Shown: piece by piece, positions 344-39,923 of the stretch
Layout: every line of letters starts with the position of its first letter
How positions within the stretch are numbered: position 1 is the stretch's first letter
Assembly (NCBI GenBank): GCA_030704615.1
Contig: CM060733.1
Span: 16,740,001-16,804,000 of the forward strand
Direction: 5' to 3'
From: Takakia lepidozioides
Lineage: Eukaryota > Plantae > Bryophyta
DNA length: 64,000 bases
The notes under the pieces: generated by a model
What the model was told of the DNA's origin: nothing
Seen by the model: the letters and a program-made list of their open reading frames with translations, nothing else
Databases searched by the model: none
Program-made: the position numbers and the translations under genes

Positions 344-429
344 CACCCAAAATCTACACATGGGGCAACTGATCCCCCTTTGCAGAGCGGTTGGTCGTTC
401 AGGCGCAATCATAGGCTCCCTAGACGGCA

Positions 430-6600: not shown

Positions 6601-7359
6601 TGTCACTACTTTGATTCCATGAGTGGAGATCATGGCCTCAATCCTTCTGTGGAGCATTTTGGCTGCATTGTGGACCTTCTTGGCCGCGCAGGCCGATTGG
6701 TGGAAGCAGGGGACTTCATTAACAAAATGCCAATTGAACCAGATGTTCGGGTGTGGGGTACTTTGCTTGGTGCCTGCAGAGTCCATGGAGATGTGGAGCT
6801 AGCAGAATGTGTAGCAAAAATCGTACTCCAGAAGGATCCACAGGATGCTGCATCTTATGTGCTCCTGTCAAACATCTATGCTGCGGCAGGGAGGTGGGAT
6901 GATAAAGCAAAGGTGAGAAAAATGATGGAAGACAGAGGTGTCAGCAAGGAGCCAGGGCACAGCTGCATCGAGGTCAACAACCTTGTGCATACGTTTGTTG
7001 CGGAAGATAAATGGCATCCTCAACTTGAGGAAATCCATGCTGAGCTGAATAGATTGTCTGAGCAGATGAAGGGGGCAGGGTACGTACCTGACACACGCTT
7101 TGTATTACACGATTTGGAAAAGGACCAAAAGGAATTTTCTCTGTGCCACCACAGTGAAAGATTGGCTATTGCTTTTGGGCTCATCAGCACACCCCATGGG
7201 GCTCCTATCCGCATCATCAAGAACCTTCGGGTATGTGGTGACTGCCACACCGCCACCAAGTTTATCGCGAAGATTGTGGGTCGAGCAGTTGTGGTTCGGG
7301 ATGCCAATCGCTTTCACCACTTCCAGGATGGGGTCTGTTCCTGTGGAGATTACTGGTGA
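3655..7359 (+). CDS. PLS-class pentatricopeptide repeat protein with E1/E2 and DYW cytidine-deaminase domains (organellar C-to-U editing factor)
   Basis: 1234-aa uninterrupted ORF with 101-aa P-L-S triplets (nine MY(A/V)KC S-motifs), then P2-L2-S2, E1/E2, PG box ([10 protein letters not shown]), HSERLA, CGDCH and terminal CSCGDYW. Confidence 0.98.
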
Positions 7360-9104: not shown

Positions 9105-11092
9105 ATCAAGTGAGAGTCCCTGTAAGTGTTCCTTATCGCCCAAAGGATGATCTACATGTCGAGATTGTGTATGTTGATAATTGTCTAAAGTAGCTAGAAG
9201 TAGTGTCAAATGGGCGAATTAGGGAACGATGGCTACAGAGATGCGTGAGCAACTCTATTGGAGCTTGGGGCAAGCATTTACCTGGTGTGCAAGCCCAAGA
9301 ATTGAGGAGGAGGCAGATCCTACATCTGCACAATCATATGAAGATCTTGCACATAGGAAATGTATTGTTGTAGTTGAGCTGGGTGTCACCCTCAGAAGGG
9401 GTTGGTGAGTCAATTTGCAACCTTGAAGGCCACTGCCCTACAGACGAATGATCTCATTTCAGAGAGGAGGGCAGAGGTGAAGGAGATGAAGGAGGCCACG
9501 AAGAGGCAAGAAGAGAGGGATGCAAGTATTAAAACAAGAGTTGGGGCATTGGAAGTCCAGCTGGAAGACTGCAACTATCACAGGGAATTGTAGGATAAGC
9601 AACTTGAAAATGCGCAGGCGCATTTTGATGAGCTCACGAGGTTTTTGAGGAGGGAGATTGAGTTGGGGAGCAAGGTTAGGAAGAGGGTTGCCTTGACAGT
9701 GGCAAGGAGGAGTGTGGAAAAAACATGTACTTTCAGTGAGACGGACTGAGAAAGGGTAGGCATCCGCACTTTGAAAGTGAAGGAATTATTGGTGGATGGG
9801 CTTTTCAGCAATAGAACCCACCAACTCTTCGGCTGGAATGTTGTGGATGGACTCGTTGAACTCGAAAAACCCATCCACCAACAAGTTCTTCACCTTCAAA
9901 GTGCGGATGCCTACCCTTTCCTAGTCCGCCTCACTGAAAATACCAAAGAAAGTCCTCTACGCTTCCTTCTCCCTCTTCCTCCTTCCACATGCTTTTTCCA
10001 CACTCCTTCTTACCACTGTGAAGGCAACCCTCTTCCTAACCTTGCTCCCCTAACCTTCCTAACATTAATTGTGGTTTCTGGATTTGTTCCTCTCTCATGT
10101 TTTCTTCCATTTGTCCCATAAGCTCTATGAGCTTTCCGCGGACGTTATAAAGCACCATTTCATTTCATTTCCCCAACTCAATCCCCCTTCTCAAAAACCT
10201 CCTAAGCTCATCAAAATGCGCCTTCGTATCTTCAAGTCGCTTATCCTACAATTCCCTGTGATAGTTGCAATCTTCAAGCTAGACTTCCAATGCCTTTAAT
10301 ACTTGCATCCCTCTTGCCTTCTCGTGACCTCTTTCGTCTCCTTCTCTCCCCTCCTCTCTGAAATGAGATCATTCGTCTGTAAGACAGTGGCCTTCAAGGT
10401 TGCAACCTGACTCACAAACCCCTTCTGAGGGTGACCCAACTCAACTACAACAATACATTTCCCATGTGCAAGATCTTCATATGATTGTGCACACTCATGG
10501 ATCTGTCTCCCCCTTAACTCTTGGGCTTACACACCATGTAAATGCTCACCTCAAGCTCCAATAGAGTCACTCACGCATCTCTGTAGCCATCGCTACGTAA
10601 TTCGTCCATTTGGCTCCAGTTGCTTTAGACGCTCATCAACATACACAATCTTGACATGTATATCGTCCTTTGGACGATAAGGATTAATATCAATACTATC
10701 AAGAACATCCTTGCGACCCACCTCTGCTTCCCATAGATCCACCTCTATTTCTGCCACCCCCACCTCAGCTTTTCGTGTTTTTAAGCATCGCTGAACCTGC
10801 ACATCCGGTCAACTACTCTACATAAGACAACTTTTGGTTACCCAAAGCAGTATCATATGTTAATGTGAGTACTCGTTGGAGAAAAACACTAAAATCGAGT
10901 AAGTGTATACACATACTACTCTTCTTAAAAACAACGAGTGGTGAAAACTGATTATTCTACTCACCTTTATGGTAAACTCGATGAGTGTGGGCCTGCACTA
11001 TCTGCCACCCCAAACATACGAACATATCAAAATGTCTCCTTTAAAGCCATACGAAGTCAGTCCTGACATACTTATAGGGACTCTCACTTGAT
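9105..11092. repeat. Long foldback inverted repeat (about 2 kb) with about 57-bp spacer
   Basis: 9105-9127 ATCAAGTGAGAGTCCCTGTAAGT matches the reverse complement of 11070-11092 at 22/23. 9131-9806 pairs with 9864-10683; for example GAAAGGGTAGGCATCCGCACTTTGAA pairs with TTCAAAGTGCGGATGCCTACCCTTTC. Confidence 0.9.
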
Positions 11093-12265: not shown

Positions 12266-12787
12266 GTGTGGCTTTGTTCATTGTATGTAAAAGATTTTGT
12301 CTGAGGATTGTTTGTTGATTGCAGTTGGCATGATGTTCTTTTGTAAACTGGATTGCATCTCTAGATGAGATTATTGCTCTTCATCAGGAAAAAGCAGCAA
12401 AAGGGGTTCATAATGCTGCCATCAGTTGGATTTTCAATTGGATTTTGAGAGTTGGTTAAACCCTCCTTGGGTGAAAGCAGACCTAGCTGCCATGATACAT
12501 GGTCAAGCACACAATCTGGCAATGGTTTTTATGTTAATGTACGCCATGGCATTGGAGCCCAAGAATACATCGGGTATTCTCCTGACGAGGATTCAAATGT
12601 CTACCACGAGTAGATAGAATTGTTACAGTTCACTCTCAAGAGTATGTGACTCAGTAGTCTTTGTACCCCTCCATGTATCTAGCAGGGGGCCTGTCCTAGC
12701 GAAGAGATGTTTCCTTGAAGAATCTTGTTGTATGTCATCTAAGTTTGAAATTGGAGGTCTGTAATTAAGAGTTTTGAGTCATGCAGG

Positions 12788-15530
12788 ATGGCAGGGTTGA
12801 ATAATGCAGAGTTGTCTGTTGGACATGATAATGGCATCAGCGTTAGTACCCCAACCCTCACCGCAGATGTTCAAAGACCACCAAGTGCCCAAGTCAATAA
12901 GGATTTTTCTGGCGCTTGTGAGTATGTGAGGATACTATGTAAGGCAGGACGTCTGAACGCTGACCATTTTGAACCAAGGAGGTGTTCAAGCAGACTCGAC
13001 TGTCTATGTCTGTCTCTTGCAGGAATGTATCAACACAAAAAACCTAGCAAAGAGCAAGCAGGTGCATGCCCACATCATTCGAAGTGGATGCAAGCCACAA
13101 ACATTGTACTCAACACCCTTCTCAATATGTATGCCAAGTGCGGTAGCATTGTGGACGCACGCCAAGTGTTTGACAAAATGTCTGAACGAGATAAGTTTAC
13201 CTGGACTATGATGATGGCAGGCTGTGCCAAGCATGGGCACGGCGAGGACGCTGTCAAACTGTATGAGCAAATGGAACAGGAAGGGGTGACCCCGGATAAG
13301 GTGGCATTCATCTGTGTTCTCAATGCGTGTGCTTCCCTGCAAGCCCTGGAAAAGGGCAAAAAGATCCATGCTGATATCATCAAAGCGGGAATCCCATCAT
13401 ACATTAATTTGGAGAATAGCCTTGTGAACATGTATGCCAAATGCGGGGTCAAGGATGCACAACAAGTGTTCGACAATATGGCCAAACAAGATGTGGTTTC
13501 ATGGAGTGCCATGATCACAGGATACGTTCAGCATGGGTGTGCTAGAGAAGCTCTTAAAACATATGATCAAATGCAGCAGGAGGGAGTGACGCCAAACAGG
13601 GTTACATTCATGTCCGTTCTGAATGCATGTGCCAGCCTAGGAGCCCTAGATAAGGGCAAACAGGTCCATGCTGACATCATCAAAACTGGGACTGTATCAT
13701 ATATCAACTTGGAGAATTCACTAGTTGACATGTACGCAAAATGTAGGAGCCTTAAAGATGCACAGCAAGTGTTTGACAGCATGGCTAAACGAGATGCGGT
13801 TTCATGGAGTGCATTGATAGCAGGATATGCTCATCACGGGCTTGGTAGGGAGGCTGTAGATATCTATGAGGAAATGCAACAGGAGGGAGTCGTGCCTAAC
13901 ATGGTTGCATTTATTTGCGCTATCAATGCATGCTCGAGCCTAGGAGCCCTGGAAAGGGGCAAAGAGGTCCATGCTGATACAATCAGAGCTGGAATTGTGT
14001 CCTCTATTAATTTGGAGAATACCCTTGTTGACATGTACGCAAAATGTGGGAGCATGAAGGAGGCGCTTCAAGTGTTTGACAATATAGAAAAACGAGATGT
14101 GGTCTCATGGAGTGCTCTGATAGCAGGATATGCTCAGCACCAGCGTGGTGCGGAGGCTTTCAATATGTATGAGCGAATGCAACAGGATGGAGTGCTGCCC
14201 GATAGAGTCACATTCACTTGTCTCCTCAAAGCGTGTGCTAGCCTTGGAACCCTGGAAAAATGCAAGCAGGTCCATGCTGACATCAGAATGTCTGGGATTG
14301 TGGTAGATATCATTCTGGGAAATACCCTTCTTGATACGTATGCCAAATGCGGGAGCGTGAAGGATTCCCGTGAAGTGTTCGACAACATGGCTCAAAAAGA
14401 TGTCGTCTCCTGGACGACCATGATTGCAGGATATGCTCACCACAAGTGTGGCCAGGAAGCTTTGGAGGTCTATGAGAAAATGCGGCAGGAAGGGGTGTCA
14501 CCTGACAAGGTTACGTTCACTTGCGTTCTTAATGCTTGTATCATCTTAGAAGACCTGGAAAAGGGCAAAGAGGTCCATGCTGACGTCATTAAATCTGGAA
14601 TGGCACCAGGTATCATCCTGGATAATAGCCTTGTTGACATGTATGCCAAATGTGGGAGCATAAAAAATGCACGTCAAGTGTTTGACGATATGGTTCAACG
14701 AGATGTGTGCTCATGGAACGCCATGATCTGGCTATGCGAAACATGATTGTGCCAGGGAGGCTTTGGAGATCTATGAGAAAATGCTAGAGGAAGAAGTGAT
14801 TCCTGACCTGGTCACATTCACTTGTGTTCTGAATGCATGTGCCAGCCTAGGAGCCCTGGAGAAGGGCAGGTGGGTCCATGGTGAGATCAGCAAAACTGGA
14901 ATTATGCCAGATATCATTCTGGATAACAGCCTAGTTGACATGTATGCCAAATGTGGGAGCACAGAGGATGCACGTAAAGTGTTTAACAATATGACTAATC
15001 GAGATGTGGTCTCATGGAATGCCATGATTGCAGGATATGCTCACCATGGGTTTGGTAGGGAGGCCCTTGTATTATTTGAACAAATGCAACATGAAGGCTT
15101 GAAGCCAGATACTGTCACATTTATCTCTCTTCTCTCGGTATGTAGCCATGTGGGCTTAGTGGAAGAAGGCTGTCACTACTTTGATTCCATGAGTGGAGAT
15201 CATGGCCTCACTCCTACAGTGGAGCATTTTGGTTGTATTGTGGACGTTCTCCGCCGTGCAGGACAATTGACTGAGGCACGGGACTTTATTCACAGAATGC
15301 CAGTTGAACAAGATGCTCGGGTGTGGAGATCCTTGCTTGGTGCTTGCAAAACGCATGGCAATGTGGAGCTAGCAGAACATGATGCAAAATTCGTTGTCAA
15401 GGGGGGCCAATAGCACAGTGCAGCTTAGGTGCTGCTCTCAAACACTTATACTGCGGCAGGGAGGCAGAACAGAAAAGCAAGTGTGAGAAAAATGATGGAG
15501 GACAGGGGTGTCAGAAAGGACATCAGCCAT
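12788..15530 (+). pseudogene. Tandem paralogue of the PLS-PPR gene; frameshifted, truncated after E2, no DYW
   Basis: Same GAGTCATGCAG|GATGGCAGG start context as copy 1. The first L motif lies in an alternative frame (12969-13105), there is a frameshift near 14728 and a stop at 15411-15413. The E2 remnant VLLSNTYTAAGR...[12 protein letters not shown] ends where the PG box should start. Confidence 0.9.
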
Positions 15531-16861: not shown

Positions 16862-17697
16862 TTAAAGCAAAACAAAAATCATTCAAGTGTGATGACAGAC
16901 CTTACAGTGGAGCGTTTTCTGTGATAATCACAACAACATGGAAGTCATGGAAAACCATATTGCAGAGGAATGGTTGTCAAATTTCAGCAGTATGAAAAAA
17001 CCCGAGGTTATGGGTCTTGGAAAGTTTTGCACCAATAATGCTTGAGAAAGGGATTCCCACACGAGGGAGATAGACTGGGACCCTTAAGACAAAGTGTTCA
17101 TCATTTGTTGAATGCCATAGTCTCTCAAGTATGCTGGGAAATCTCCTAGGAGAGTAACTACCTGCATGGAGGTAGTTATATTTTCTTAACCCAGAAAGAA
17201 AACTCTAAGTCTTTGACCAAATCAATCTCCATGGAGGTAGTCGCCACCACCAACCAGCCTCATTATGACGAGGCTACACAAAATTAAGAGTTGACATTTC
17301 CAGCACACCTGCTAGACCAGCAACTGGCACCACAATGCTATACAAAATTGAGAGGCGATATTTCCAGCCTAGTGGCCATACCCTGTTAGTTCACATGCAC
17401 ACGCTTTCTTTCAAATCAAGCCACTTCAATATTGGGACAAACATCTTTGTTGGCAAATAAGAAGTGTGCAGCATAGCTTTATAGAAAAACCCAAGTGGGG
17501 TGATTGTACAAATGGGTAATATTGTCCCCGAGATGAGAAACAAACCAGTGTTGTACTGGTATATAGGGTTAACCCAAGTATCAATAGTGGGTATCAACCT
17601 GGTATGAGAGAACCTACCACGCGGGTAGCTAACGGCCACAATACCCAGAATAGACCAGTGTTACCCTATTTCGATTTGCCACCCTACCATACTCATA

Positions 17698-18355
17698 CAG
17701 TCGGCCCTCGGTCCTCCATATCTGTTAATATTTGGGAGTAAGAAAAACTGTAACACTTAAAGGATTTGTAACACTTTAACAGATACAAATTTAGATCAAT
17801 GAAAAGTAACATTTATAAAGCTCACTCTTATGTAAGGAGCCCTAAAAAATTCACGTTAATAGAACTACGAGAAGGGAAAAACCATCATCATGGCTGATGA
17901 TCTACAAACACTGAAGGTTGGAAGAAAGATTCTATGCATGTCTGATGTGAATGTCTCAATATCTCTACACCCTTTGCAAATTTCTCTAACTTGTCTACCA
18001 AGTGCATGACATCTGTCGACCTCTGCTGCAAGAAATGATGCATGTTTCAAGAGCAACCAGTGCCTTCCTACATTACCATCCAGTACTGGGGTTACAGGTT
18101 TATCAGTAACTATATATTCACTATTATTAAGCTCCTTTATATATGTCCACTTGAGTTGATCACAGACTTAACTTGAGTGAATGAAGAGCACTTTAACACA
18201 TACACATGGTCATTATTCAAAGAGGGGAGTAACCGATGTTTAACAATTAAACACTTAACGTCTTGCTTAGTTCACCCAAGTAGGGAGTAAGAATTATGCT
18301 AACACATATAGTTTTTTAACGCTTATGGAGGTAACAAATATGGAGGGCCGACTTG
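17698..18355. mobile_element. Probable Tc1/mariner-type MITE
   Basis: TA|CAGTCGGCCCTC...CATATCTGTTA at the left end and TAACAAATATGGAGGGCCGACT at 18332-18353; AT-rich interior; the right TA TSD is imperfect. Confidence 0.5.
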
Positions 18356-21066
18356 ATACCTCTCGTGAATGCAGAGCGATACCCTGGGTAGAGTCTTGCG
18401 ATATACTAGCACACATTTTAGGGAAAGGGTGACGGCTACGTAGAGGGAACCTTTGGGCGGCAGATTGCAGTTAGGGTGAGAGATTTGTTAGATTTGGGGT
18501 GGTTGTGTAATTGCAGTTGTGATTACACCAAGGACAGTGGTGGCAATGGACAAATCGTGGCTGGGTATGCCTATGTATATATTGGAAACCCTTGATGTCA
18601 CATGGAATTCAGCCTATCTGTCCTGAGAATGAACTTCATACCCGGGTTGATATCTGCCTGGTATTGCACAATTCCAAACCCTACTATTGATACCACATAC
18701 TGGTTCTTGCAAAAAGCAATACTTATACCAGTATTGCTGGGGCACTTATTCATCATTACCTCTATTTCTATTAATTTATTATGTCATGGTTTGCATTTTT
18801 TTTTGGGGCCCTGCGTGTGCAGAGTCCCCTAGGTACTAGTAAGTAATAAGTAGTAAGAATAGCACATCAGCATTAGCACATCCCCCTCATGCGGCCCATA
18901 CTCGTAGACAAACAAGGGGTTACTGAAGCTCAGGAAATCCAGTTTTGGTATGGAATTCTGGACAAGGAGCTCAAGAGAAGGGTGCGAGATGCAACCCTGT
19001 TACAAGCAGCCCAACCCACATTAGCAGATGTGTTTCTGCTGGCTGAGCGGATTGAGCTCAACATGGTGGAGGAGCGAGTTGTCACCATTGGATTTGGCAA
19101 GGACATGCCTGCACGAGGCGCAGCTGCCAGCCCACAGGCACAAGGTACTGCCCAGCAGCGTGGTCAGGGGGGCAAGGTTTCCCAACCCAAGTTCCATGGA
19201 GTTTACAGGGGACCTCAGGTGCAGAGGCCCGTGGCATCTTTTGCAGGCCAACAACAACCAGGGGTGGTATGTTGGACATGTGGAGGACCCCATGTCAAGA
19301 AAGATTGCCCAAAGAATGGCAGAAGGCCGGCACAAGCACAGCCTGCACAGTTGCAGTGTGGGCATTGTGGCAAGTATGGACATGGAGATGCCCAGTGTTA
19401 TGACTTGCACCCTGAGTTGCGCCCAGGCCAGTTCCAAGGGAACAATGGTGGCCGGGGGCGAGGTGGACCAGCCCAGAGAGCACGAGGTGATCGGGCACGA
19501 GGTGCAGGCCAAGGGCAAGCTCAACATGGCCAAGGACGCGGATGTCAGGGTGTTGACCAAAGCATGGCCAACCGGCTTCAGCAGCTAGAGCAGAGGCTCG
19601 CTGCCATGGCTACAGCTCAGGCGGTACCGGCTCCCAGGCGGGATGGTCCACCTCCTGTTCCTGAGGGAGGAGATATGGGAGGCATGGGATTCATATACGG
19701 AGCAGCACTACCACTAGAGCAGGTGGAGTCTGCTGCAGCCGTGACTCGAGGAGCAGCACGAGTTCCTGAGCCACGAGGTGCAGAGGTGGAGTTGGATCCA
19801 CAACGTGGGGAGGCAAGCCGTCAAGCGAGGCTGCCTCAGTCATTCACCTTGGCGGAGACAGTGTCAACGCCATCCATGGCACCTAGTTCTCGCCCGACTG
19901 TTACCGAGGCGGAGGTTTCTATGCCATTGGGGAGAGCTACACGTGCAACACTGATACCTGCTGCCAAGGCTAGTGCAGCCGGTGTGTTGTTGGGGGCAGC
20001 CACCTCTGTGTGTCAAGCCCCACTGTTCTCGGCAACCATGATTGCGACGCCGGGGGTAAGACCAGCTGCAGTGTTCAGACTAGCAGCAACACTCTATGAG
20101 AGTGGGGAGGTCACGTCATCTTCTGCGGAGTTAGTGGAAGGTATAGTGGCAGAGGGATCCTCGGATTTGAGGGTCAAGACTGCCATGGCTGCGCCATGGC
20201 AAGCTGCAGCTGCCAAGTTGACGGAGCTGCCAACTAGGCCAGCCTTTGAGCACGCCATGGTGACACCTGGAGTTGTCTTGTTAGACAACCAGGGAGACAT
20301 TTTCACTTTGAGTGGACCGGCAGGCAAGAAGTACTGGCCACTGCGGGTCTTGTTGGACTCGGGAGCTCAGCCACTGATGTTGGGCAGAGCTGCTATTGCA
20401 GGTTTGGGCCTCATGGAGGCGGATATGGAGCCTTGTCCTTTCCAGATACAGACATCTCTGGGAGGATCAGAGCAGGCTCGGGGCATGACACGGCGTGAGT
20501 TGGCCATTGGACTACAAGCAGATCATCCTGTAGATGGCTGAGTGATGCGAGCCAAGGCCATTGTGACAGACGCGGTCTCTTACGATGTCCTTGTGGGTGG
20601 GGCAGTGTTATATCCCATGGGCTTCACCCTGGACTTTTGGGAGGAGTCAGCATCCTACAGGCCTGGATGGCAGTCAGGGGATGGTCGTCGTGCACAGCTC
20701 CCTGTGACATTCATTGGGGGTATTGCGGTTGCCCAACGGGGCAAGATGCCAACACTAGCCGCCTTTACAGCTGCAGTTAGTTGGCCTAGAGAGTTGCTGG
20801 AGGGCAATGCCCATGCAGAGGATGTGTCACCTCCAGCAGAGCAGGATGACATGCATGGTATGGCGGAGTTGCCTGCCATGGTTGCTCACACTCCATTGTG
20901 GGGTACGAGCAAGGATTTGCAGCAGGTTGCGGATCGACGGGTGCAACAAGCCTAGGTAGAGGCTTTTGTACCGTTAGGAGAGGAGGAGAGTGCGGGTATT
21001 GCACCAGGACCACCTCAGTTGTCACCATTGGATACCACACCTATTGTGTGGCAGTATATGGATGAA

Positions 21067-22015
21067 GGCATTTGCCTTCTGGACTTGTTTGGCGGGATCA
21101 GCACCGGATTGGCTACTGTGCTACAGACAGGTGTGCGGGTAAGGCATTACCTGTATGTGGAGAGGGATGAGACTGCACGACGCGTCTCACTGCGCCATGT
21201 GGCTCAGTTGGTACAGCAGTACCCTGACTTGTTGCATGTGTCTGCAGTTCGTGGATACCAACAAGCCTTACGAGCAGACATTTCCTTGTTGGGGGCGCAA
21301 GATTTGGAGCAGGTTGGCTCCATTGATCTGATAGTGGCAGGTTGGCCCGGCCAAGGGTATTCATCAGCCGGGCATGACAATGGACTGCGAGACTCGAGGA
21401 CGGGTCTGTTTTGGGAGATGGTGCGGGTTTTGCGCCACTTGCAGCTTCATCAAGCTGTATCTCCAGCATACATCTTGGAGAATGTGCCACTGATGGGTGA
21501 TTCTCGGGCCAGGGTGATGGCCAGTGTGCATCAAGTCCGATCGTGGCTTGGGTCAGCAGTGCTGCTGGATGCAGCTGCAGTGGGATCACGGGCTCATCGT
21601 CCACGGCTTTGGTGGACTAACTTGATGCCACTCGCACTGCTCAAGTGTGCATTTGATGGGGTGCAGCGGCCAGCACACCTCACCGTGGATGGCATTTTGG
21701 ACACAGGGAGGTAGTCTCAACGTGTGAGACACGATGACCGTTCGCCTTTGGCAGTGGTCAACAGGGTGGGTCAACCACGAGCAACATTACCTACACCGCT
21801 CAGCTTCCCAGGATCCCATGCTTTTCGGGATGGTGGACCTGGCCTCTTGTGGGATAGCCAGTTGCAACAGTTAGTGGAGCCTAATGCCGACGAGCGAGAG
21901 CGGGCTATGGGATTTTCCACTGGGACCACGGCGGTGCCTTCTCTTTCTGAGGCATCACGTCGTCAGGTGTTGGGGCAAGCAATGGATCTCAATTGCTTGA
22001 CCTGGATTATCAGCT
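21067..22015 (+). pseudogene. C5-cytosine DNA methyltransferase domain (DNMT3-like) inside the retrotransposon pol
   Basis: Motif I LLDLFGGISTG, II YVERD, IV DLIVAGWP(G)QG, VI YILENV, VIII AHRPRLWWTN, IX ERERAMGF, X RRQVLGQAMD, in canonical order; one stop at 21712-21714. Confidence 0.92.
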
Positions 22016-25000
22016 TGGCTATGGCTGAGCAACGTAGAGTGCGGAGTGCCCTTCCCTTGACGGTCTCTCTGCCTACCGAGACGGTACAGGCAGTGAGTGG
22101 GGGCGAGCCGGTGAGGACCACGGGGTGTAGACATCCATGGCACACGTGGGAGGTGCTCGAGGTTCAGAAGGACTTGGCAGCCAAGGCAGCTGTGATGGAT
22201 GAGGTTGGGGATTCTTCTCGGGATGAGGAGGTTCTCAATGATGAGATGATGGGGCAGGATGAGGCCTTGTCATTGACTGAGCAGGAAGGGAGTACTGCTC
22301 AAGAGGTTGCAGCATAACAACCACGGACGCGTCCTCTACCTCTAAGCCCACTGGACTTAAGGTTGCAGTTACGGAGGACAATTGGGAGCCTGACATTGGA
22401 CCCATTGTCACCGGAGAAGAGAGATGACGTATACGGCGGTTCCTGAGGGCTTACAGGAATTGCTTTGCCTTCAGTTTGAAGGACTTGGGAGCACTGAAGG
22501 GTCAAGAGATCCGTATTGAGTTGGCCACTGACACGCCAATCTTTCGGAGACCCTATAGATACAGTGACATGGAGAGGTCTTTGATTCAGATGAGGACTCA
22601 AGATCTCTGGGAGGCAGGTTTGGTGGAGCTCTCTGGTGGAGAGTATGCTTCAGCCACAGTGATGCCAGCCAAGAAGGATGTCTATGGCAATTGGACGGAG
22701 AGACGTATGTGCGGTGATTACCGGCCTGTAAATCGTCAGACCAAGTCCAATAGGTATGCCATGCCGACACCAGAGGAGATCTTTGATGCCATTGGGCATT
22801 CCCAGGTCTTTAGCACGTTGGATTTACGATCCGGATATCACCAGTTGCCGATCAAGGAGGCGGATAAGCAAAAGACGTCATTCTGGGGGATCAATGAGCA
22901 CGGGAAGGATTGCCTATACCAGTGGCGGTTCTTACCATTTGGGCTTAAAAACGCTCCCGCTGAGTTTCAAAGAGTCATGGACAGGATTCTAGCAGGGGTG
23001 GAGTTTGCTCGGTGCTACATAGATGACATCGTCATCTTTAGTGCTACGGTGGAGGAGCATGAGAGACACCTTCAGGGGGTATTTGAGCGCTTAAGGACGC
23101 ACGGATTGAAGTTACATCCGGGCAAGTGCAAGTTTTTTCACAACCAGATTGAGTATCTGGGTCACATGATATATCCTGGAGGATTGGGGGTACAGCAGAC
23201 TAAGGTAGAGTCCATTGCACAGGTTCCACGCCCCACGGATGTGAGCCGAGTTTGAGCTTTCATGGGGTTAGCAAACTATTACAGACGGTTTGTTAAGGGA
23301 TTTAGTGCCATTGCAAAGGCTCTAATCAAGCTGACCAAGGTAGACCAGGAGTGGTATTGGGAAGATGAGCAAGAACAAGCTTTTCAAGAGCTCAAGGCGA
23401 GGTTGACCTCGGCGCCCATCTTGAGACGACCTATCAGGGGGCGTCCTTTTCAGCTGCATACAGATTGGAGCATGCTGGGGCTTGGAGTGGTGCTCACACA
23501 GGTGATGATGAGGGAAGAGAGTTCGTAGTGGCTTATGCTAGCCGCTCGAACAATGCTGCAGAGTCTAAGTATAGCTCATATGAGGGAGATTGCTTAGCTG
23601 CAGTGTGGGCCGTGGCACACTTCAGGTGTTATCTATACGGCAATCTCTTCACCCTTGTCACGGATCACCAACCACTCAAGTGGTTGATGGAGTCAGACAA
23701 GCTTATGGGGAAGCTTGCACGGTGGGCACTCATCCTTCAAGAGTATGACTTTCAGGTGGTGCATCGACCGGGTTTGGTCAATCGCAATGCAGATGGGTTG
23801 AGTCGCAATCCATGCACGAGCCAGCAGGATGACACTGGAGCTCGGTGGCATGGTGAGACGGACGAGGAGATGGTGCCCGGATGGCATGCATCTGCATTTC
23901 TGTGTATCTTGGCAGCGGAAGGCCAGGTTGGACCTGCAACAGGGATGACTGTAGATCAAGTGTCTGAGGACCCTGAGGCCAGCAATGAGCAAGGTGGCGC
24001 CAAAGATATACATGAGGATTCAGTTGTGTTGGACTACCTCCGCACTGGAGACACTGCAGCCACTGTGACTGCCAAAGAGAGGGATCGGATCCTACAACGA
24101 GCCAAGAGGTTCAAGTGGGAGGGGACACACCTGCTCCGAGTGTAGGAGGATGGTCGAGTGAGGATTGTGCCTCACCCAACACAGCGGGCACGGTTAGTGC
24201 GGCATGCCCATGAGGAGTTGGGTCATTTTGGGGTGCGACGCACTCATAGTCTACTGCAGGGGCAGTATTGGTGGCGTGGTATGCACACAGAGGTGCAACA
24301 ATTTGTGGCTAGGTGCATGGTGTGTGACAGGGTGTGTGCTTCATTCAACGCCCCTACTCCACAATTGCACCCTCTTCCGATCATGGGATTGGGCTACAGG
24401 TGGAGTCTTGACTTCGCAGGGCCGTTGCCACTGACCATGCGTCACAACAAGTACGTGTTGGTGATGGTGGAGCACTTCTCCAAATGGATTGAGTTGGTTC
24501 TATTGCCTGATAAGGCTAGTGAGGGAGCTGCGTATGCATTCTTGGATTGTGTGCTTAGCCGATTCGGTGCTCCAGCTGGGTACTCACGGACAAGGGAGAG
24601 AGTTCTTGGGGGAGTTTCAGGCTTTGTGTGACAAGGCCTTGATAGACCACCGCACCACTTCTCGGGATCATCCTGAGGCCGACGGCTTGGCAGAGAGAGT
24701 TGTTCAGACAGTAAAGAGGGTTTTGCGCAAGTATGGCTTGCAGAAGGGACACCTAGGAGATTGGGACCTTCAGTTACCCTGGTTAGCCATGGGCTACAGG
24801 TTCAGCAAGCAAGCATCACTTGCCTCCTTCTCACCATACTTTCTTCTCTTTGGCCGAGAGCCGGATTTGCCTACATCCATTCGTAGAGAAGCTGCTACAG
24901 TTCTTAATCTTGACGATCCGGACGTGTGGGCACGTGCATGTGAGCAGCGTACAGAGTTGTTCAAGAAAGTCATGCCCATGGCTTTCGAGAACCTTGCCAT

Positions 25001-25304
25001 TGCACAACACCGTGATACGTTGAGGTATGCTACCATACGTGGTGGGGGCTATCGTCCTGGGGTTCGGAGATTCAACCCTAGTGACTATGTCTATCTGCAG
25101 CAGACTGCTCCTACGACCTTGGATGTGACTGCATGACGTGTTATTTTGAGGGTTCGAGAGGTCTTGCCCTCAAGCGTCTTGGTCTTGGAGGGTCGGGATG
25201 GCATAACTTGGAAGGACCATGTGCGTAATTGTGCGCCATGTCACCTTCCGAATGTCGATGGCAGGATTGACCCAAACTTGGCAGTGGTATCTGCAGGTTT
25301 GAGG

Positions 25305-25420
25305 TGCATGTTGTGTGGGTCTGCTAAAGGGGCAGCCACCATGTTGGTGTGTGATCGATGCTCTAGAGGTTGGCATATGGGATGCTTGACTCCACCTCTT
25401 GAGGGTGGAGTCCCCATAGC
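25305..25420 (+). other. PHD finger at the integrase C-terminus (last Cys pair degenerate)
   Basis: CMLC-x11-CDRC-x4-HMGCLTPPL, in the same frame as the integrase end (24489 and 25146 ORFs). Confidence 0.85.
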
Positions 25421-25619
25421 TTGGGGTGCCCCTGGCTCGACTTCTGTTTTAAGAGTGATAGCGATGGATTCATGTTGTTTCTGGTGTGAACAGTGTGTCT
25501 CTTAGCTTGTCAATCTATTGTGGCAGACTACTTTATTGTGCATATATATGTGGTGAAGATGATGTAGGTATCGACTGGTTTTGGCCATAGATCTGGAATG
25601 CTTAAGGGTGAATTCAGTT

Positions 25620-26340
25620 GGAGTTAGGAGTCGGTGCCCCGTGGCGGTGGTAAGTTGGGTGAGAGTGGTAATGTGTCGCTCTTTGAAATAGGTAAGGATG
25701 GGTATTTTTTTTGCTTAGGGTGGGAAGTTTCTAATTGAGGGAGAAAAGGGCTAGCGAGCCAAGCGAGTTCTAAAAGTGACGAGGTGTTAGGATAGTCTAG
25801 TAAGTCGGTTTGTATGCTAATTTTCATTTGTCATAGAATGAGTAGTGTACGCGCGGTAAGGGAATGTAGGCACGCATGTGGGTGTAGTGCAGATATATAT
25901 AGCACATTGTATTTTAGGGCAAGAAATTTGAGGAGTCCCTGATAGATTTGGCCTAGGCATCCAGGATCATTCAGGGCCTCAATTAATTGTGAGCCTAAGG
26001 TGCGGGCATATGAGATGATTAAGGGGCTAGAGCCAATCCCGTAGCTGTCGGTTGGGAGTTGGGTGAGGGCATTGGGGGTACTGACAGGCAGTCCACATAC
26101 CCGCTTTGTGAGTTGGATAATGCTCTTGTCGAGTTTTTTAATGTCCGGGAGGGAGAAGGGTACGGCGTGGAACGAATATTGTACTTGGGTTTTTAGTACT
26201 GATTGTATGATTGATAATTTGGGTCGGATGGCAATTGGGGATTTGAGGAGAACCAAACTTCTATTGGCTAGTTTGGATGATGTGGCGTCTTTCTGAACGT
26301 GCCAGATGAGGGAAGAGACCAGCTGGATGCCCAGGTAACA
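25620..26340 (-). mobile_element. LINE fragment (region just after the RT core)
   Basis: YLGIQL...PKLSIIQSVLKTQVQYSFHAVPFSLPDIKKLD...CGLPVSTPN...YGIG resembles the non-LTR RT thumb and downstream region; cut at about 26340 by an AT-rich element end. Confidence 0.7.
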
Positions 26341-26720
26341 ACGTTTTTTTTTTTTTGGCGAATTTTCGTCAAATGGTGACCTCAAAAAATAGAAAAAAAA
26401 TATTCCGTAGCAAATTCCATGTTTTTTCATGGATGAAATCGCCAAATTTCTCCAAAAAAATAAAAAATATAGATGAATTCGCCAAATATGGATGATATGA
26501 ATGGATGACAGTATGGATGTGGATGATTCTGTCCTAATTTTAATGGATTTACAGAATATATGCCTAATTTTTGCAAAATTCTGTAGCCACTCGTGCTATT
26601 TTCCGAATTATAAAAAAAAAAACTCTGTTAGGTAAGTATATGGCTCATCTGGCCCGAGGAAGGGGAAAGATTTATTCTGGTAATGTACATACAGTTTACA
26701 GTGGGAGGCGATAGTAGGGC

Positions 26721-27354
26721 ATGTCGTGTGTGTTTGGCAAGCCCAAGTATGGTGTACAAGACATGCCTGAACCACCAGCAGTCTGGCCTGTGGCAACTGG
26801 TACAGATCTTACCCTGGAGGAGGCAGACGCTCTAGGAAGTGCAGGGTTTCGAATGGTGGAGAGGACAGACATTCCACAAAATCCAATTTCTAGTCGTCAT
26901 CCTCCTCCCATGAGAAGCTCTTCGCCCCGCATACAGGTGGGTGACCCCACGGCTTGGCCACCCATCGGTGGGGAAACTGAAAAGACGGCGGCCAAACCAA
27001 CAAAGGCGAACGACACCAGGATGGCCAACGCTTTGGCAATGCCCGCATAGTGCAAGGTGCAGGGATGTTCCTCACCCCGGGAGCGGGGCGCATATTTCAG
27101 TTGTCAACAGCCGGGTCTGCGCGCGCAGTGTCGTGTATGCAATCACGGTTTCTCAGTACCCAGCTTGCAACTGTGAGGACTTCCTTGTTATGGAATCGAA
27201 GAATGCAGCATACGTCCCCTGCAAACAACTTTATTACATTTTTCTGAAGCACATGAGTTGCATATCCGCAGTGGACGTCTTCATCCATGCTCCAACACTA
27301 AGCTTTAACGAGCTGCACAAGGCCCTACGGCAGGATACAGGTCGGACTGCTTGA
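26721..27354 (+). mobile_element. Mutator-like transposase C-terminal remnant with SWIM zinc finger
   Basis: YAITVSQYPACNCEDF...YVPCKQLYYIF (SWIM CxC...CxH, with His replaced by Gln); frameshifted; GGATGA-rich AT-rich segment at about 26340-26600 may be the element end. Confidence 0.65.
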
Positions 27355-28799
27355 CATTCCACATTCGGGAAGGAGAAAGTGGCAATTATATTACATTCAT
27401 CTTCTTGCACCCTATTTTTTTGTGAGAAATTATACACTTGGTGGTGCCGCACTGCCATGGCTCTAGGTGCATTTCGGTGCCGCAATACATGAGAATGTGG
27501 TTTTTGGCGTGAATGGCATGGGCATTGTTTTTTTTATTTGGTTATGTTTATAAATGGATCCGAGGAAGACAAGCATACATTGTGTGGAGATACACGGACA
27601 TTGTGGCCTATTTCAGCGACGTTATTGGTCTGTATACTGCATAATGCTCCTTGTTAGCTCTTCATTCAATTGTGGTGATTTCGCAGCCCATCCTGGCATT
27701 TTCATCACCTTTATGATAAGCTTCGATTGCTACCAATACATCGTTAGTGTTTGCAAATGTGATGCCTTTACAGGATTGCTAGTTCTGTGTCCCAGTGGGA
27801 AGGGTCCTACTGCACATTCAAGCATTTGCATACTGCAACTTGTGCACACAGCAATCCATACGACAAAGAACACGTCCCAGCATACTGGTAGTGAATTGCA
27901 AAAAACCTTAACAGAAGATTATCCAAGCATGTAATTCCCATATGGCACAGGGAAGCTACTGATTTCTAAATCAAAATGTATGTGCCATGAGTGTCGGCGA
28001 GTCGAAAAATGTCTACTCTAGCATGCAAGACCTATGGTCCCTCGCCCAAGAAGAAGGCACTCGAACTGGCCTCTCAAGGACCTCCTGAGTGACTAGGTGC
28101 CGATATTTGAACAAAATGTCAGCGGTTTCTGTCGCCCGGTTGAAACTAACGAGGATGTCTGTTGTTTATCGATAGGCCCCCTTTGTAGAAGGACATTTTC
28201 ACAATGGGCCCTGTGTTCCCTCCTCTCCTCCAATGTCCCCATTTTCCGAGCCAATCCGTCACGCGTGAAGTTTTCACCTATGCACTCATCATACGTCCAC
28301 TCGCAACAGTCCAAAGCGATACAGCACCGCTGTGCGTGATCTGTTCGGTCCACTCAAGCGGAAAGTCCAGGTCCATGATGCGCAGGAACCACCTGCTGCC
28401 TCAGCGGGGCCAGGAGAATCGTGCAATCCTGGAAGAAACTCCATTGCTCTCAGCTTGGAAAGTCGAGATCGTCCCTGTAAACATCAGGAAGACAATGATG
28501 TCGTCTGCTTTCGGGACAATGATCTCAAGTCTGGCGTCGATAGATGTGATTCGGGCACGACATGGCCTCACGACACAACAAGAACACAGAGCAGGGAGGA
28601 GATGGGCACAGCAGAGAAGAGTGAAGAGCAAAATGAGAGCGAGGCCGGCGGAAGAGGGATATATCATTGCTGCACTGCCAATGTCGTATGCAGCAGAACT
28701 TCTATTTCCTCCGACATGTGTGCTTTTTATTAGACAAATCCGCACCAGTTTCAGGACAGTTTGCAAAACTCCCTCACCGTAAGGCGGGTATTTGCTCTC

Positions 28800-32610: not shown

Positions 32611-34601
32611 AAATTAAGTTTTTCAAGATTTTTGGAGAGGATTTGCAGCAAATCATTATTATGAAGTTTTTGAGAGTTCGTGGTGTAGATGCATATCTTG
32701 GTACACTTTTCTTTTCAGATCGTTTTTGATCATAAGACAAGCGGTTTCGGCATTGTACTGCCAAAACATGTTAGTTTGTTAGTTGTCTGGAAATCGTTGG
32801 TAAAGCACGTAGATAATTAGACAGTGTCTGAGATGACCATGGAGTGGAACTCTGGCGTCAAGATGACCGTAGGAAGCTGCATCGACAACATATTAGGCTG
32901 TCCATTCGATACCAGAAAAGACAAGTTAATCCTGTTCGAACAATATAGAACAACTGTTCCAGTCCCAGATTGCGATCTCTCCTTTCTCTCGCCTTTCAAA
33001 TCCAGTAGGAACACACGGTGAGGAGCTTGGCAATTGGTGGAAGCGACATGTATAACGATGAAATATCGCAACAAAGCAATTGGCCGCATCGGAACGACAG
33101 TAGGTCAGGATGACTTCAAACGGCAAAGCCTGAACTTGTTAGCGGTGCGGGACAACTGGAGGGGACTCCGGACAACCTATGACTTAGTGGCAGGGTCAAA
33201 GACCCCAGAGCCATCACCAGGGATTTGATTTCCAAATATACCACAAAATATGTGTGTAGCGAAAATACGACGAATGGCGAGAAGGGCAACTTTTTACCAC
33301 CGATGGAGCTGAGAATTTACACGCTGATACGGGGTATATAATTGTAGTTTATCACCAAGTTTGGTGATTTATGGAGCTGATTAGCAGCAGGGCCAAATTA
33401 TTGAGTCAACGGCACTCACAAGGCCTATTATTTGCATTTCTACTGCTTGGATGCATGAAAAAAACCTGGAATTCGCCTTGAGGAGCTGGATGGATGAAAT
33501 GACAACTCGTGCCAACTGGTCATCCAATTGGATGGATGAAAATACAGCTTTCATTTGCCTCTAAGATCACATACACAAATGGTGAAATGGTAAGATGGGA
33601 TCAACCTTTCTATGCGAGAGTGCTTGGGATGCTCTATCGACTCAAGTAATGGTACTCTATGCGGCCTTCACTTGGGCTCTCGTCCATAAGTCCATACCAG
33701 CCCCTCCTAACTCGTCCTCAAGTCACTTTACTCCACATGAAATTGCCCTCTTCCTTCACAAATGAAAATGGCTCAAAGGCCCACAAGCTAGGCCACTTGC
33801 CTTAGCTCACAAGAATCCTATCTAACTAGGGAGCTTCAAGCTCCACTCCCTAGGATCTAGCCCCTCCTCAAGCCAAAAGCTAGCAAGCACTACAACAACA
33901 AGCAAGAGGAAACTAAGCAAATGAGCTAGATGAGAATAAGGGAAGCCTTGCCCCCTCTTTTATACTGTTGTTGTGCCTAATAGTTTAAGGGAGAATATTT
34001 ATTAAACTATTATTTCTTGGAGGATCTATAATATACTATTCCACATGGATGAAACCAAGCAAAGCTTGAAGTTGAAAATCTGATTTAGACTCTTCAAAAG
34101 AGGAGAGTGCATTGTGGAGTCCCATTATTTCATGTCTAAAAGTGACAAGGGGAAGACCCCCATAGTCTATTGGTAAGGGCACCAATAGAGGCTTGTATTT
34201 GAATTGTTGGAAGAAGAAATCTTTGTATTTGATTACTAATTTGAAATATAGCCAGCCCTGGCAAAGCAGGCTAGTACGCTAAATCTATGATATAAGGCCA
34301 TTATAGGGCCTCTATGTGCTAATCCCCCCCCCCCCACTAGCAAGCCATGGAGGCCTAGGGGAGGGTGGATTGTATTCTTTTTGTCTTGGGGTTTGGGCGG
34401 GCTAATTTCGCTTGACAGCAGCTGCCCCAAAGTCGCGAGCAGCCCGGGAGGAGCCCGGGTGTTGCGCCTAGAGAGTAGGGACTCGATTACTAAAAGCGTG
34501 GAGGCAGCCGTGGCCTAGCCACGACGTACGGGCGCGGGGCCCCAGCGCTGACCTTAAGTCGTACTGAGATCAAGTACATCAGCCGCGTGGCTCAGGCATG
34601 A

Positions 34602-35331
34602 TGTCGCGGCCCTTTGCCTTGAGGGCAAGGGGGTCGGGACACATGAGGGGTTGCCCCTGTGGTGGGGGCAGCGGCAGCGATAGGTATGGGGGGCTGAAGC
34701 ACCCTTGAGTGCCCAAGGCACCCAATGAGGCGGAGGCGCTCACTAGGTGGAGCCCCGCACACCGGGTTGCGGTGGGGGTGGCTCCACAAGCGGTGGGGGT
34801 AGCTTAGCGGAACTTAGTGGGGGTGGCATAGGACTCACCATGGGGGCGGAGACCTCGTGGTGGGAGTCGTGGGGAGTCTTGGGACTCATCACGGTCCATA
34901 GGGGCCGTAGTGAGTGGGCCAAGACTCACCGCGACTCATCACCGGGAGTCGAGGGTTTTCGTGGTGTTCGCCATAAAATGGCATGGCTGGTTGTGAAACC
35001 CCCGCGGACAGCTACAGAAGTATATATATAAGGGGAGTAGTGACCCCGAGAACGGTGCAAGCCCGTTGGTGACCAAAAACTAGTGAGTAAGCGAACGAGC
35101 CGGAAAGCGACCAAAGAGACTGCCATCTACCGGACTGCCATCTACCAAAGGGAATTCTCCTAGTCCCAAATAGGTGGAGGGTTTAGTGGGAAGCGAAGGG
35201 GGACCGTTATGTCCCGGTGAGCAGCCGAAGCTCCAAGTTGGCCCGGGCGGCCAGGTTGGGAGTCAGGTGCGCGCATTCAAAGCGAGTAACTATGACTTCA
35301 AGGGGAGCTTATCGAAGTGAGGTGCGCGACA
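34602..35331 (+). repeat. 5' LTR (730 bp)
   Basis: TGTCGCGGCC...GGTGCGCGACA; near-identical to 40827-41550; TATATATAA at about 35023. Confidence 0.95.
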
Positions 35332-35333
35332 CT

Positions 35334-35345
35334 TGGTATCAGAGC
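35334..35345 (+). promoter_or_regulatory. Primer-binding site for tRNA-iMet
   Basis: TGGTATCAGAGC, 2 nt after the 5' LTR. Confidence 0.95.
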
Positions 35346-38300
35346 TTAGAGTTCAGTACGCGATCGTCCTTGGGATTGGCCTCATCATGGGGTCGGGCAA
35401 GCCAAAGCGAAAGCGGAACGGCCCAAAAGATGATGATCCTGGTGAGCCCGATGGGGGCGACGTGTCACCGAAGCGGCCGTTTGAGGAAGCGACGCAGGTT
35501 TCTGAAAGCGAGGCCGCTCAAGAGCGGGAGGAATCCGAGGAGTCGGAGCCCGAGGAATCCGTGAGAGCTCCGACCGACCAACAGATGCCTCCCATGCCGG
35601 CAGCCTTTTGGGAAGGGTTGTTGGCGCAGTTTGGCGGGACGTTGAAAGACGTGTTGAAGGCGGCTAATGCCACTTCCACTAAGGCAAAGTTTAAGGTGAA
35701 GCCTAAGGAACCCGGCACCTTCGAGGGCGTCCGAAATCGGAAGGCACTCAACACCTGGCTCCTGGAGCTAGAGCAGTACTTCCGGGCCAAGTTGAATGAC
35801 GAGGCTCGGTGGAAGTGGCTCCCACCTATTTGAGGGGCTATGCTCAACAATGGTCGCAGAAATGCCTTCACGACCAGGTCCAAGCCCGGAAACCTTGGAC
35901 TGGAGTGGGTTCAAGGAATTGATGAAGAGACAGTTTGTGCCCCTCAACGCGTCTGGCTTGCCGGGACAAGATGAGGAATTTGAAGCAAACAGATGACATT
36001 CGGGGGTATGTCCAGGCTTTCAATGTGCTGTTGCTCGAAGTCGCGGACATGGCAGAACCAGAAATGGTCTTCAACTTTGTGGCGGGACTGGCCCCATGGG
36101 CCAGGCGGAAGTTGGAGGAGAAGCCACCCAAGACTTTGAACGAGGCAATTGAGAGGGCTGAATGTTTCTCGGATGTCCCTAGGGGTGAGAGACAAGGCCG
36201 TACGGAGCTGAACCACAAGAAGACCCCGGCGGGAAGGTGACTCCTCCCGACCGGAAAAGAAGTGGGATAGGCCACGCGACGACAATGGCACGTGGAAATC
36301 GAAGGGATGGCCTTCACACGTCAAGGCGGCACCCGGTGCTTCGAAAGAAGAAGCGGGTGGAGCGGCTTATGGCGGACAAAGGCGACCTTTGATGGAGTGT
36401 GTTTCAATTGCGGGGAGCCCGGGCACATGGCCAAGAAGTGCACAAAACCTCGACAATTGAACATGACTCGGGCAACCACGGAGCTGTCGGAAGATACCAT
36501 CAGTCGCTTGGTGGAAGCGGTGGTCGCCAAGACTTGCAAGGTAGGCAACTATTCTTGTGAGTTGTATCAGGAAACTGGCGCCCTGCGTAAAGGGAGTCAG
36601 TTATTGTTCGTGGATGGGATAATATCCGGAACTTACGTGTCGTTGTTGGTGGACACAGGAGCGTCGCACTCCTTCATGACGCCGGCGGCGGCGCGAAAGT
36701 TGGGACTCTCGACAAGTGACGTGGGGGCCTCTATTGAGATGCGTTCTGCCAAAAGATAACCACAGTTGGCGACAAGGTTGGCGTTTGATGTTCCTCTTCA
36801 ACTGGGAGTTGGGAGGGACGTGAGAACTTCACCATCTCGAGATCAATGGAGTGGATCTCATTTTGGGGATGACCTTTTTGAGCAAATCCGGAGCGGTCAT
36901 AGATGGCCGCAAGAGAGTAGTCACGTGCCATGTGGGAATGGTGGCGAGGTTTTACGAGTGTCGGAAACGCCCAAATCCGTGGGAGGGCGAATAAACCTTC
37001 TGTCAGCAAAGGAGTGGGCCGTGGAGGAGGCACACGAGCCCAATTTTTGCTTTACATTAGAGAAGTGAAAGGAGAAGGCGATGGGGAGCCGAGCCCAGAT
37101 TGGATCAAGGGGATTTTGGAGAATACCAGGATGTGATGCCGGAGGATTTACCAAGCGGCTTGCCACCGCGAAGAGGAGTTGACCACAAGATTGAGGTGAT
37201 ACCGGGATCGGAACCGCCTGCCAAGGCGCCCTACCGGTTGAGCCACAGAGAGTTGGTCGAGCTGAAGACTCAGCTCAAGGATCTAATGTCAAAGGGGTAC
37301 ATCCGGCCGAGTAAGTCACCTTACGGAGCCCCGGTGCTATTTGCAGACAAGAAGGATGGGACGCTGCGGATGTGTGTCGATTACAGGGCTCTGAATAAGG
37401 TGACTATCAAAAACCGGTACCCTTTGCCAAGGATCGACGACCTCTTCGATCGGTTGGCAGGAGCGAAGTATTTCAGCCGGATCGACTTGCGCTCCGGCTA
37501 TCATCAAATTCGGGTGGCGGAAGGAGATGAGGAGAAGACCGTGCAGGACAAGGTATGGTTCATATGAGTTCTTGGTGATGCCTTTTGGGCTCACCAATGC
37601 ACCAGCGACATTTAGCACGCTAATGAACAGCCTTTTCCAGGAGTGGTTGGATGACTTTGTGATCGTGTACATCGACGACATCTTGGTGTACTCGAAAACA
37701 AAGGAATAACACCTGGAGCACCTAAAAGGGTGTTCCAAAAATTGCGAGAAGGGAAGCTGTATGCCAAAGCTTCAAAGTGCGAATTCGGGGTCACAAAAGT
37801 GGAGTTCTGGGGCATGTGATTACACAGGGGGATCAAAATGGATGACAGAAAGGTGAGGGCGATCTTGGACTGGGAGCCTCCGACTTCGGTCCGGGAGTGC
37901 GATCCTTCCTAGGACTCGCCTCCTATTACCGGAAGTATGTGAGAAATTTCGCCAAGATCGCGGGGCCGTTGTCGGACCTTCTGTGTAAATCCAAAGTCTG
38001 GGAATGGAACACATTTTGTGGCCAAGCTTTGCTGAATTGAAGCAGCGGATGGCGGAAGCTCCAGTCTTGAAAATCCCGGAGTTCGATCGTCCATTTGAGA
38101 TTCATACAGATGCGTCGGACTTCGCGATTGGGGGTGTACTTATGCAAGATGGACGTCCAGTGGCTTACGAAAGTAAGAAACTGAATGAAGTGGAGCGACG
38201 GTGGCCGACGCACGAAAAAGATGAAGGCGGTGGTGCATTGCCTCAAGCTTTGGCGCCACTATGTTGGTTCCAACCCAGTGAAGGTGTTCACGGACAATGT

Positions 38301-39737: not shown

Positions 39738-39923
39738 TCTGAGTACGAGGTGGAGGCAATACTTAAGTCGAGGAGGTTCAGGAACCGAGAAACGGAGTAT
39801 CTCGTCAAATGGAAGGGCTATCATCATGTGGAGGCATCTTGGGTGCGTGCCTCAGAAATGGGAAACGCATCCGAGGCGGTTGCAGCTTTCGAAGGGCGAC
39901 CTCAAAAGCGGAAGAAGCGTTGA
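39738..39923 (+). other. Integrase chromodomain
   Basis: EYEVEAILKSRRFRNRETEYLVKWKGYHHVEASWVRASEM, with the aromatic residues present. Confidence 0.93.

Follow-up and report, generated by a model that had tools for sequence, protein, structure and literature searches.

We analysed a 64,000-nt stretch of the genome of the moss Takakia lepidozioides (assembly GCA_030704615.1, contig CM060733.1, positions 16,740,001 to 16,804,000 of the forward strand), hereafter the window. At ~ 18913–25555 it contains a Ty3/Gypsy element encoding gag, protease and a C5-cytosine methyltransferase, followed by reverse transcriptase (RT), RNase H, integrase and a PHD finger. This copy is dead: it is truncated, interrupted by stops and frameshifts, and has Gly in place of the catalytic Cys. 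It belongs to an abundant family that bears the methyltransferase domain. Gypsy elements with a DNMT3-like domain were already known (KnitGypsy-Dnmt3); what is likely new is their persistence in land plants and a probable readthrough layout with the methyltransferase ahead of the stop. In this family, gag, protease and methyltransferase form a first open reading frame (ORF1). We consider it probable that the RT part is reached by UAG readthrough, and that the enzyme, produced at the level of Gag, methylates the element's own complementary DNA (cDNA).

Frame +1 runs from 18889 to 22314 and joins the 3′ part of gag, the protease and the methyltransferase, broken by single stops at 20539, 20953 and 21712, just as the original prediction had read it. 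The RT, RNase H, integrase and PHD that it had placed downstream were all confirmed by Pfam matches, the PHD in part. The domain order gag-protease-RT-RNase H-integrase is that of Ty3/Gypsy long terminal repeat (LTR) retrotransposons. Behind the integrase, where chromoviruses carry a chromodomain, lies the PHD finger, and the RT falls outside the chromovirus rows. The ATG at 18889, where the span of the original prediction begins, does not mark the start of the element: the tblastn alignment opens at residue 178 of a Marchantia ORF1 (P0003), and sister contigs diverge upstream of ~ 18913.

The stop-free piece 20956–21711 matched PF00145 (E 2e-12, 47.7 bits; cut-off 22), the profile suggested in the original prediction. 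The DNMT3-like character of the motifs noted there was also borne out. Of the solved structures, DNMT3A matched the window domain best (E 1e-8), and a profile built from 53 homologues gave scores of 99 bits for DNMT3A, 62 for DRM and 41 for M.HhaI. An AlphaFold model (pLDDT 96) of the domain from L005, an intact relative described below, returned DNMT3A/B/C in all 33 Foldseek rows listed, with a best E of 5e-19. Scores and predicted fold place the domain closer to DNMT3 than to DRM, DNMT2 or bacterial enzymes, and the label "DNMT3-like" refers to these two measures; the methyltransferase tree had four prokaryotic or phage rows as outgroups. Host DNMT3 (human DNMT3A/B) gave the best sequence and fold matches and shares the canonical motif order from I to X, unlike the permuted DRM. 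The retrotransposon domain differs from the host DNMT3 and DRM enzymes in its low identity (~ 21%), in its lack of PWWP and ADD domains, in being intronless and in its location within a retrotransposon.

The methyltransferase had been called complete, which applies to motifs I, VI, VIII, IX and X, all aligning with DNMT3A, but not to motif IV, which reads GWPGQG with a Gly codon (21349–21351) at the place of the catalytic Cys. In the family, the C5-methyltransferase order I, IV (PC), VI (ENV), VIII (RxR), IX, X is present. Of 143 aligned retrotransposon domains, 141 have the catalytic Cys, all 143 the ENV Glu, and 140 and 141, respectively, the two motif VIII Arg; Gly at the Cys place was peculiar to the window copy. 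The methyltransferase of the window is 73–74% identical to its liverwort-type relatives, compared with 28–42% in the linkers. Against L005 the values are 50% and 7–24%, with codon-position identities of 58/70/37%. Because the domain is so much better preserved than the linkers, and given the codon-position identities, the pattern is one of purifying selection. We regard as quite improbable that the domain is kept for binding DNA or RNA, or as a decoy, with catalysis dispensable. Such a role would accommodate the Gly of the window copy, possibly shared by part of the host family, and the inactivity of the Klebsormidium homologue in yeast (PMC5890265), but not the retention of Cys, Glu and both Arg in 140–143 of the 143 domains, which come from both land plants and algae, nor the PCQ present in L005 and in liverwort ORF1s.

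The junction between ORF1 and ORF2

The methyltransferase had been described as an integral pol domain. It is indeed an integral, conserved domain of a Gypsy lineage, but it ends ORF1, ahead of the stop at 22315–22317. The RT of the window copy lies in another frame than ORF1. A programmed frameshift at this junction, suggested by the window copy alone, was dropped because both L005 and the sister contigs have an in-frame stop.

L005 (CADCWO010000201.1; RT 68% identical to that of the window) is a contig of 9,285 nt, a collapsed circle overlapping itself by 127 nt, and its unit measures 9,158 bp. Its ORFs 3–3491 (gag-protease-methyltransferase) and 3492–6635 (RT-RNase H-integrase-PHD) share one frame and are parted by TAG CAA TCA. 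Sister contigs of the window element, taken from four public runs, were aligned on window 17500–27500; one of the runs, X8, for which an RNA origin is only a guess, served as a sister contig and not as expression evidence, and no listed holder is recorded as RNA. In run X1, the ORF1 stop was TAG in 439,559 of 446,341 units of depth (~ 98%), as it was in the one X8 contig. The latter is one base longer directly past the stop, which by arithmetic brings the RT into the ORF1 frame, and clipped ends in X1 agree with this extra base.

Both in the window element and in L005, the junction stop is the only one followed by CARYYA, a hexamer whose frequency is 0.0015–0.002 per base. CARYYA behind UAG is the tobacco mosaic virus (TMV)-type signal that drives readthrough in plants (PMC4132726, PMC2194720), and the TMV context gave 32% readthrough in a plant reporter (PMC2754532). 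The junction has the make-up of such a site, an in-frame UAG with CARYYA between two conserved ORFs, and on this sequence evidence it is likely a readthrough site. As the domain sits ahead of this stop, the methyltransferase would be made at the level of Gag. The close ORF1s listed are 1,248–1,331 aa long, and end 77–83 residues past the domain in seven cases and 54 in one. A stem 3′ of the stop was suggestive only, with z of −4.95 in L005 and −2.14 in the window over 150 nt; over 112 nt the values were −2.29 and −0.66, and two L005 control windows gave −2.02 and −1.12.

We give little credence to a bypass of the stop by splicing or by a separate RNA. The two ORFs are directly adjacent in one frame, the exact CARYYA recurs in two families only 50% identical in the methyltransferase, and the first in-frame Met of ORF2 in L005 lies inside the RT.

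The stop itself is not new: in Retand and Ogre, one in-frame stop parts GAG-PROT from the RT (layout GAG-PROT:stop:RT-RH-INT, 49% and 14%, respectively; Neumann et al. 2019, PMC6317226). Polyproteins separated by a stop are also reported for SIRE1, Tca2 and murine leukaemia virus (MuLV), and it is TMV that shares the UAG-CARYYA context with the window family (PMC2194720). No methyltransferase is listed before the stop for Retand, Ogre, SIRE1, Tca2, MuLV or TMV.

Holders and origin of the family

Summed contig depth in X1 was 0.82–1.14 million over the methyltransferase, 0.96–1.06 million over the RT and 1–4 thousand upstream. Summed depth is no copy number, but it shows an abundant family bearing the domain. 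The original prediction would have fallen to a one-off capture; sister copies do contain the methyltransferase, and we exclude such a capture because sister contigs cover it as evenly as the RT and because the domain occurs in other holders.

Among longer proteins we obtained 31 matches, including 19 named as Marchantia, two as Calypogeia, two as Sphagnum and one as Haematococcus; the domain was also found in a Closterium element (P0125). Domains from Marchantia, Calypogeia and Sphagnum are up to 74% identical to that of the window and keep the Cys. Over the query, two liverwort classes and one moss gave 49–75% identity and algal copies 35–45%. No named vascular plant was among the methyltransferase matches, which is weak evidence, as transposable-element proteins are often omitted from annotations. 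When 1.84 billion representatives were searched with the domain, 768 matched at E ≤ 1e-10. Custom hidden Markov models applied to the best 150 of the 768 showed 95 proteins to bear a further retrotransposon domain, with the methyltransferase after the protease or before the RT in 20 and between RNase H and integrase in 75; in the remaining 55 the domain stood alone, many of these being short fragments. A genome scan returned L005 and one unrelated plant-type Gypsy. A metagenome scan with a single protein gave four loci, all with prokaryote-type methyltransferases, and two viral scans gave zero loci and one unrelated locus.

The form with the methyltransferase between RNase H and integrase makes up a large set of PHD-Gypsy proteins (P0030, P0027, P0129, P0172, P0174, P0192 and the 75 representatives). 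Haematococcus is the only named host, and we met no paper on this form. L005 and a further contig region, L006 (CAWCQT010000002.1, 8681–12883), are eukaryote-type Gypsy sequences in bacterial metagenome-assembled genomes (MAGs), likely through binning or assembly contamination.

The RT tree was a quick IQ-TREE run on 39 chosen RT-RNase H rows, eight of them outgroup. The window element grouped with Marchantia, Calypogeia and two further rows (SH-aLRT 97), then with Coleochaete and L005 (99), and was joined at 100 by Klebsormidium, Closterium and the RNase H-methyltransferase-integrase type. FastTree with 158 rows gave the same outline; a long row without these domains joined at the base, where support without it was 0.55. 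The methyltransferase tree showed similar groupings. In the RT tree the window element nests among those of liverworts and Coleochaete, which favours inheritance from streptophyte algae, the simplest reading of these sequences and a likely one. The original prediction had left open whether the lineage persisted in, or moved into, a land plant, and the RT trees fit the former better than the latter.

A recent horizontal transfer from algae into land plants, or a contaminant or chimera in the window, is very improbable in our view. The named land-plant holders are liverworts and Sphagnum only, and L005 is a contig of eukaryote type that had been placed in the MAG of a cyanobacterium. These points are outweighed by the higher identity among the land-plant holders (two liverwort classes and a moss, at the values given above) than to algal copies, by the agreement of the RT and methyltransferase trees, and by a second, deeper lineage in Calypogeia (P0108). 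Contamination, which the original prediction had named as a possible pitfall, is further countered by land-plant PPR-DYW genes in the window and by the abundance of the family in runs of four studies.

As reported by de Mendoza et al. (2018, PMC5890265), KnitGypsy-Dnmt3 of Klebsormidium nitens pairs the Gypsy domains with a DNMT3-like one that is unrearranged and subject to purifying selection, as does the family described here. Klebsormidium RTs (P0107) fall inside the same 31-row RT group as the window (support 100), the Klebsormidium proteins in the tree being RT ORFs. By its description, with which alone we could compare it, KnitGypsy-Dnmt3 has the domain in the Pol ORF, DIRS-like repeats and few copies. 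The window family, by contrast, is abundant and lives in a land plant, and its methyltransferase domain closes ORF1, with an in-frame TAG-CARYYA behind it. A domain within the Pol ORF was seen in P0063, P0261 and the Closterium protein, but not in the window element, L005 or the liverwort-type ORF1s. Cytosine methyltransferases are also borne by SymbioDIRS-Dnmt3 and SymbioLINE-Dnmt (PMC5890265) and by EpiLTRs (bioRxiv 10.64898/2026.05.21.726589), which belong to other element classes or methyltransferase families and to dinoflagellate, Euglena and Cymbomonas hosts; the EpiLTR enzyme is sister to DNMT4 and accompanied by DAM and a chromodomain.

KnitGypsy-Dnmt3 was presented as an acquisition of the K. 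nitens lineage, and the accessible main text does not name Marchantia; in the survey table, methyltransferase genes number nine in Physcomitrella and 33 in Klebsormidium, with no match for Marchantia or Sphagnum (PMC5890265). "Streptophyte" Gypsy-DNMT3 elements are mentioned elsewhere with no land plants named in the text available (PMC12344493; bioRxiv 10.64898/2026.05.21.726589). No land-plant element of this kind was found in the accessible literature, which did not extend to subscription papers, Repbase, figures, bioRxiv supplements and two REXdb files; the accessible parts of PMC6453930, PMC5784723, 10.1101/2021.02.12.428880, PMC11982613, PMC9477723, PMC12885004, PMC9985172 and PMC9940879 contain no land-plant DNMT3-Gypsy. 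Phygy, a moss non-chromovirus Gypsy (PMC6317226), has a mean length of 8.6 kb (7.7–10.0), close to the 9,158-bp unit of L005, inserts at NCGN and has a tRNA-Trp primer-binding site; no extra domain or ORF organisation is listed for it in the part of that paper available to us. Compared by description only, Phygy and the window lineage may be the same.

Possible roles of the enzyme

In the mechanism that we propose, most ribosomes would halt past the methyltransferase and yield Gag-protease-methyltransferase, and a minority would read through, adding RT, RNase H, integrase and PHD. The methyltransferase, co-packaged with the other domains, would be freed by the protease inside the particle, where its many molecules would encounter the new double-stranded cDNA and methylate it. 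This methylation would probably be at CG, by analogy with DNMT3A and with SymbioDIRS-Dnmt3, which methylated CG de novo in yeast (PMC5890265). The insertion would thus arrive pre-marked, and might be less expressed or pass for host DNA. The PHD of the element is closest to those of CHD4, PHF12, UHRF1, KDM5A and PHF21A. These PHDs read unmodified histone H3 tails, and our guess is that the PHD could steer integration into chromatin carrying them.

Alternatively, an active enzyme might be released by the protease, enter the nucleus and target the chromatin of the host, or older copies together with the integration site, rather than cDNA in the particle, damping or marking the family. We consider this fairly unlikely. 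Output at the level of Gag would go far beyond the need of one cDNA, the PHD resembles the chromatin-reader PHDs just named, and effects on insertion site and transposition rate were raised by de Mendoza et al. (PMC5890265); on the other hand, ORF1 has no reader fused to the methyltransferase, the PHD being on the integrase side of the stop, and the K. nitens methylome stays land-plant-like despite such elements (PMC5890265).

Several observations weigh against a readthrough-supplied enzyme that methylates cDNA. Position 21349 is absent from the places at which ≥ 70% of the X1 sister depth differs from the window, meaning that the Cys may be missing from a considerable share of the host family as well, or that the position is poorly covered. 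KnitGypsy-Dnmt3 produced no methylation in yeast, a result that its authors deem inconclusive (PMC5890265). The extra base past the stop was explicitly gapped in 4,527 of 247,014 units of X1 depth only, the remaining support being the clipped ends and the one X8 contig. The readthrough junction is supported by two families only, and there is no stop at the corresponding place in P0261 (2,811 aa), P0063 (2,324 aa) or the Closterium P0125. Since many algal-type relatives are stop-free or have the RNase H-integrase placement, supply at the level of Gag is not required by the wider lineage. A check for methylation scars was not telling: the CG observed/expected ratio was 0.50 in the window element, 0.78 in L005 and 0.44 in a PPR gene of the window, and 31 hand-picked transition places comprised six CG, eight CHG and 17 CHH, against a background of 13/21/66%.

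We offer, as a tentative view that we would not yet favour, a wider reading: an ancient PHD-Gypsy lineage spanning chlorophytes to bryophytes, with an active DNMT3-like enzyme in two polyprotein placements, leaky-stop loading in land plants and pre-methylated insertions. The many "DNA methyltransferase" models of this type in Marchantia, Calypogeia and Sphagnum would then be its ORF1s, and the lineage may be the CG-targeting Phygy with its enzyme overlooked.

The role of the enzyme is directly testable, as Marchantia polymorpha, a model for genetics in which methylation mutants exist, holds open-frame ORF1s with all catalytic residues. From the position of the stop, methyltransferase is expected to outnumber RT and integrase to an unusual degree. 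The question bears on plant DNMT gene counts and on how a new insertion is first methylated, for which the mechanism, if true, would be a transposon-encoded route.

Coordinates and other features of the window

Table 1. Parts of the methyltransferase-bearing Gypsy element, in window positions.
Feature	Position	Strand	Remarks
gag, 3′ part	18913..19410	+	two zinc-knuckle-like Cys/His motifs; ~ 180 N-terminal residues and 5′ LTR gone
Aspartic protease, LLDSGAQ	20263..20682	+	stop at 20539
DNMT3-like C5-cytosine methyltransferase domain	21064..22020	+	stop at 21712
Methyltransferase motifs	I 21085; IV 21340-21357; ENV 21478; AHRPR 21592; ERERAMGF ~21890; X ~21970	+	
ORF1 stop with CARYYA context, likely readthrough site	22315..22323	+	TAA CAA CCA in window copy
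Linker, RT (YIDD), connection	22326..23501	+	RVT_1 E 9e-33; stops 22425, 23253
RNase H	23504..23809	+	RT_RNaseH E 1e-26; preceded by frameshift ~23503
Integrase: H2C2, core, C-terminal part	24146..25260	+	stops 24143, 25134; frameshift ~24590
PHD finger, broken off behind 25403	25299..25403	+	PHD E 1.6e-7, profile positions 1-33 of 47
Candidate remnant of 3′ LTR start	25519..25555	+	suggested by purine run and sister-contig ends

The gag part of the window is 50–54% identical to liverwort-type ORF1s, and the first 300 residues of P0064, a homologue from Marchantia, are similar to Retrotrans_gag clusters (score 0.94). The Pfam search of the element gave no match for the protease; that of L005 had a weak match to Asp_protease_2, under the cut-off (E 8e-4). 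Behind 25403, sister contigs continue with a different sequence. One of them has a purine run directly ahead of 25517, and sister contigs depart from the window past 25555; L005 shows a similar purine run followed by TG at 6939–6952. We found no LTR pair around the window copy, and no primer-binding site (PBS) of the methyltransferase element could be fixed.

The window also contains, at 3625–7359 and 12749–15413 (+), an open PPR-E-DYW gene of 1,244 aa with a repeat period of 303 nt and a frameshifted paralogue. Named organisms among the 120 matches listed were lycophyte, gymnosperm, liverwort, moss, fern and one angiosperm, at 35–63% identity. A quick tree of 31 rows had no starred group and narrowed the host down no further than to land plants.

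Another Gypsy at 34601–41551 (+) has TG..CA LTRs 97.6% identical, a 5-bp target-site duplication (CATGA) and the PBS TGGTATCAGAGC; fragments of its family lie at 48949–49796 and 53509–54524 (−). A second decayed Gypsy at 55727–61562 (−), with end repeats of ~ 300 bp that are 88% alike, encodes in order zinc knuckle, protease, dUTPase, RT, RNase H and integrase. Its dUTPase (E 1.3e-4, just over the cut-off) is likewise an accessory enzyme, and takes the slot that the methyltransferase has in the element described above. A weak Ins134_P3_kin match was seen at 44721–45506 (−; E 6e-4, under the cut-off). Moreover, nested inverted repeats with 85–97% complementarity at 9130–10683 resemble a foldback element.

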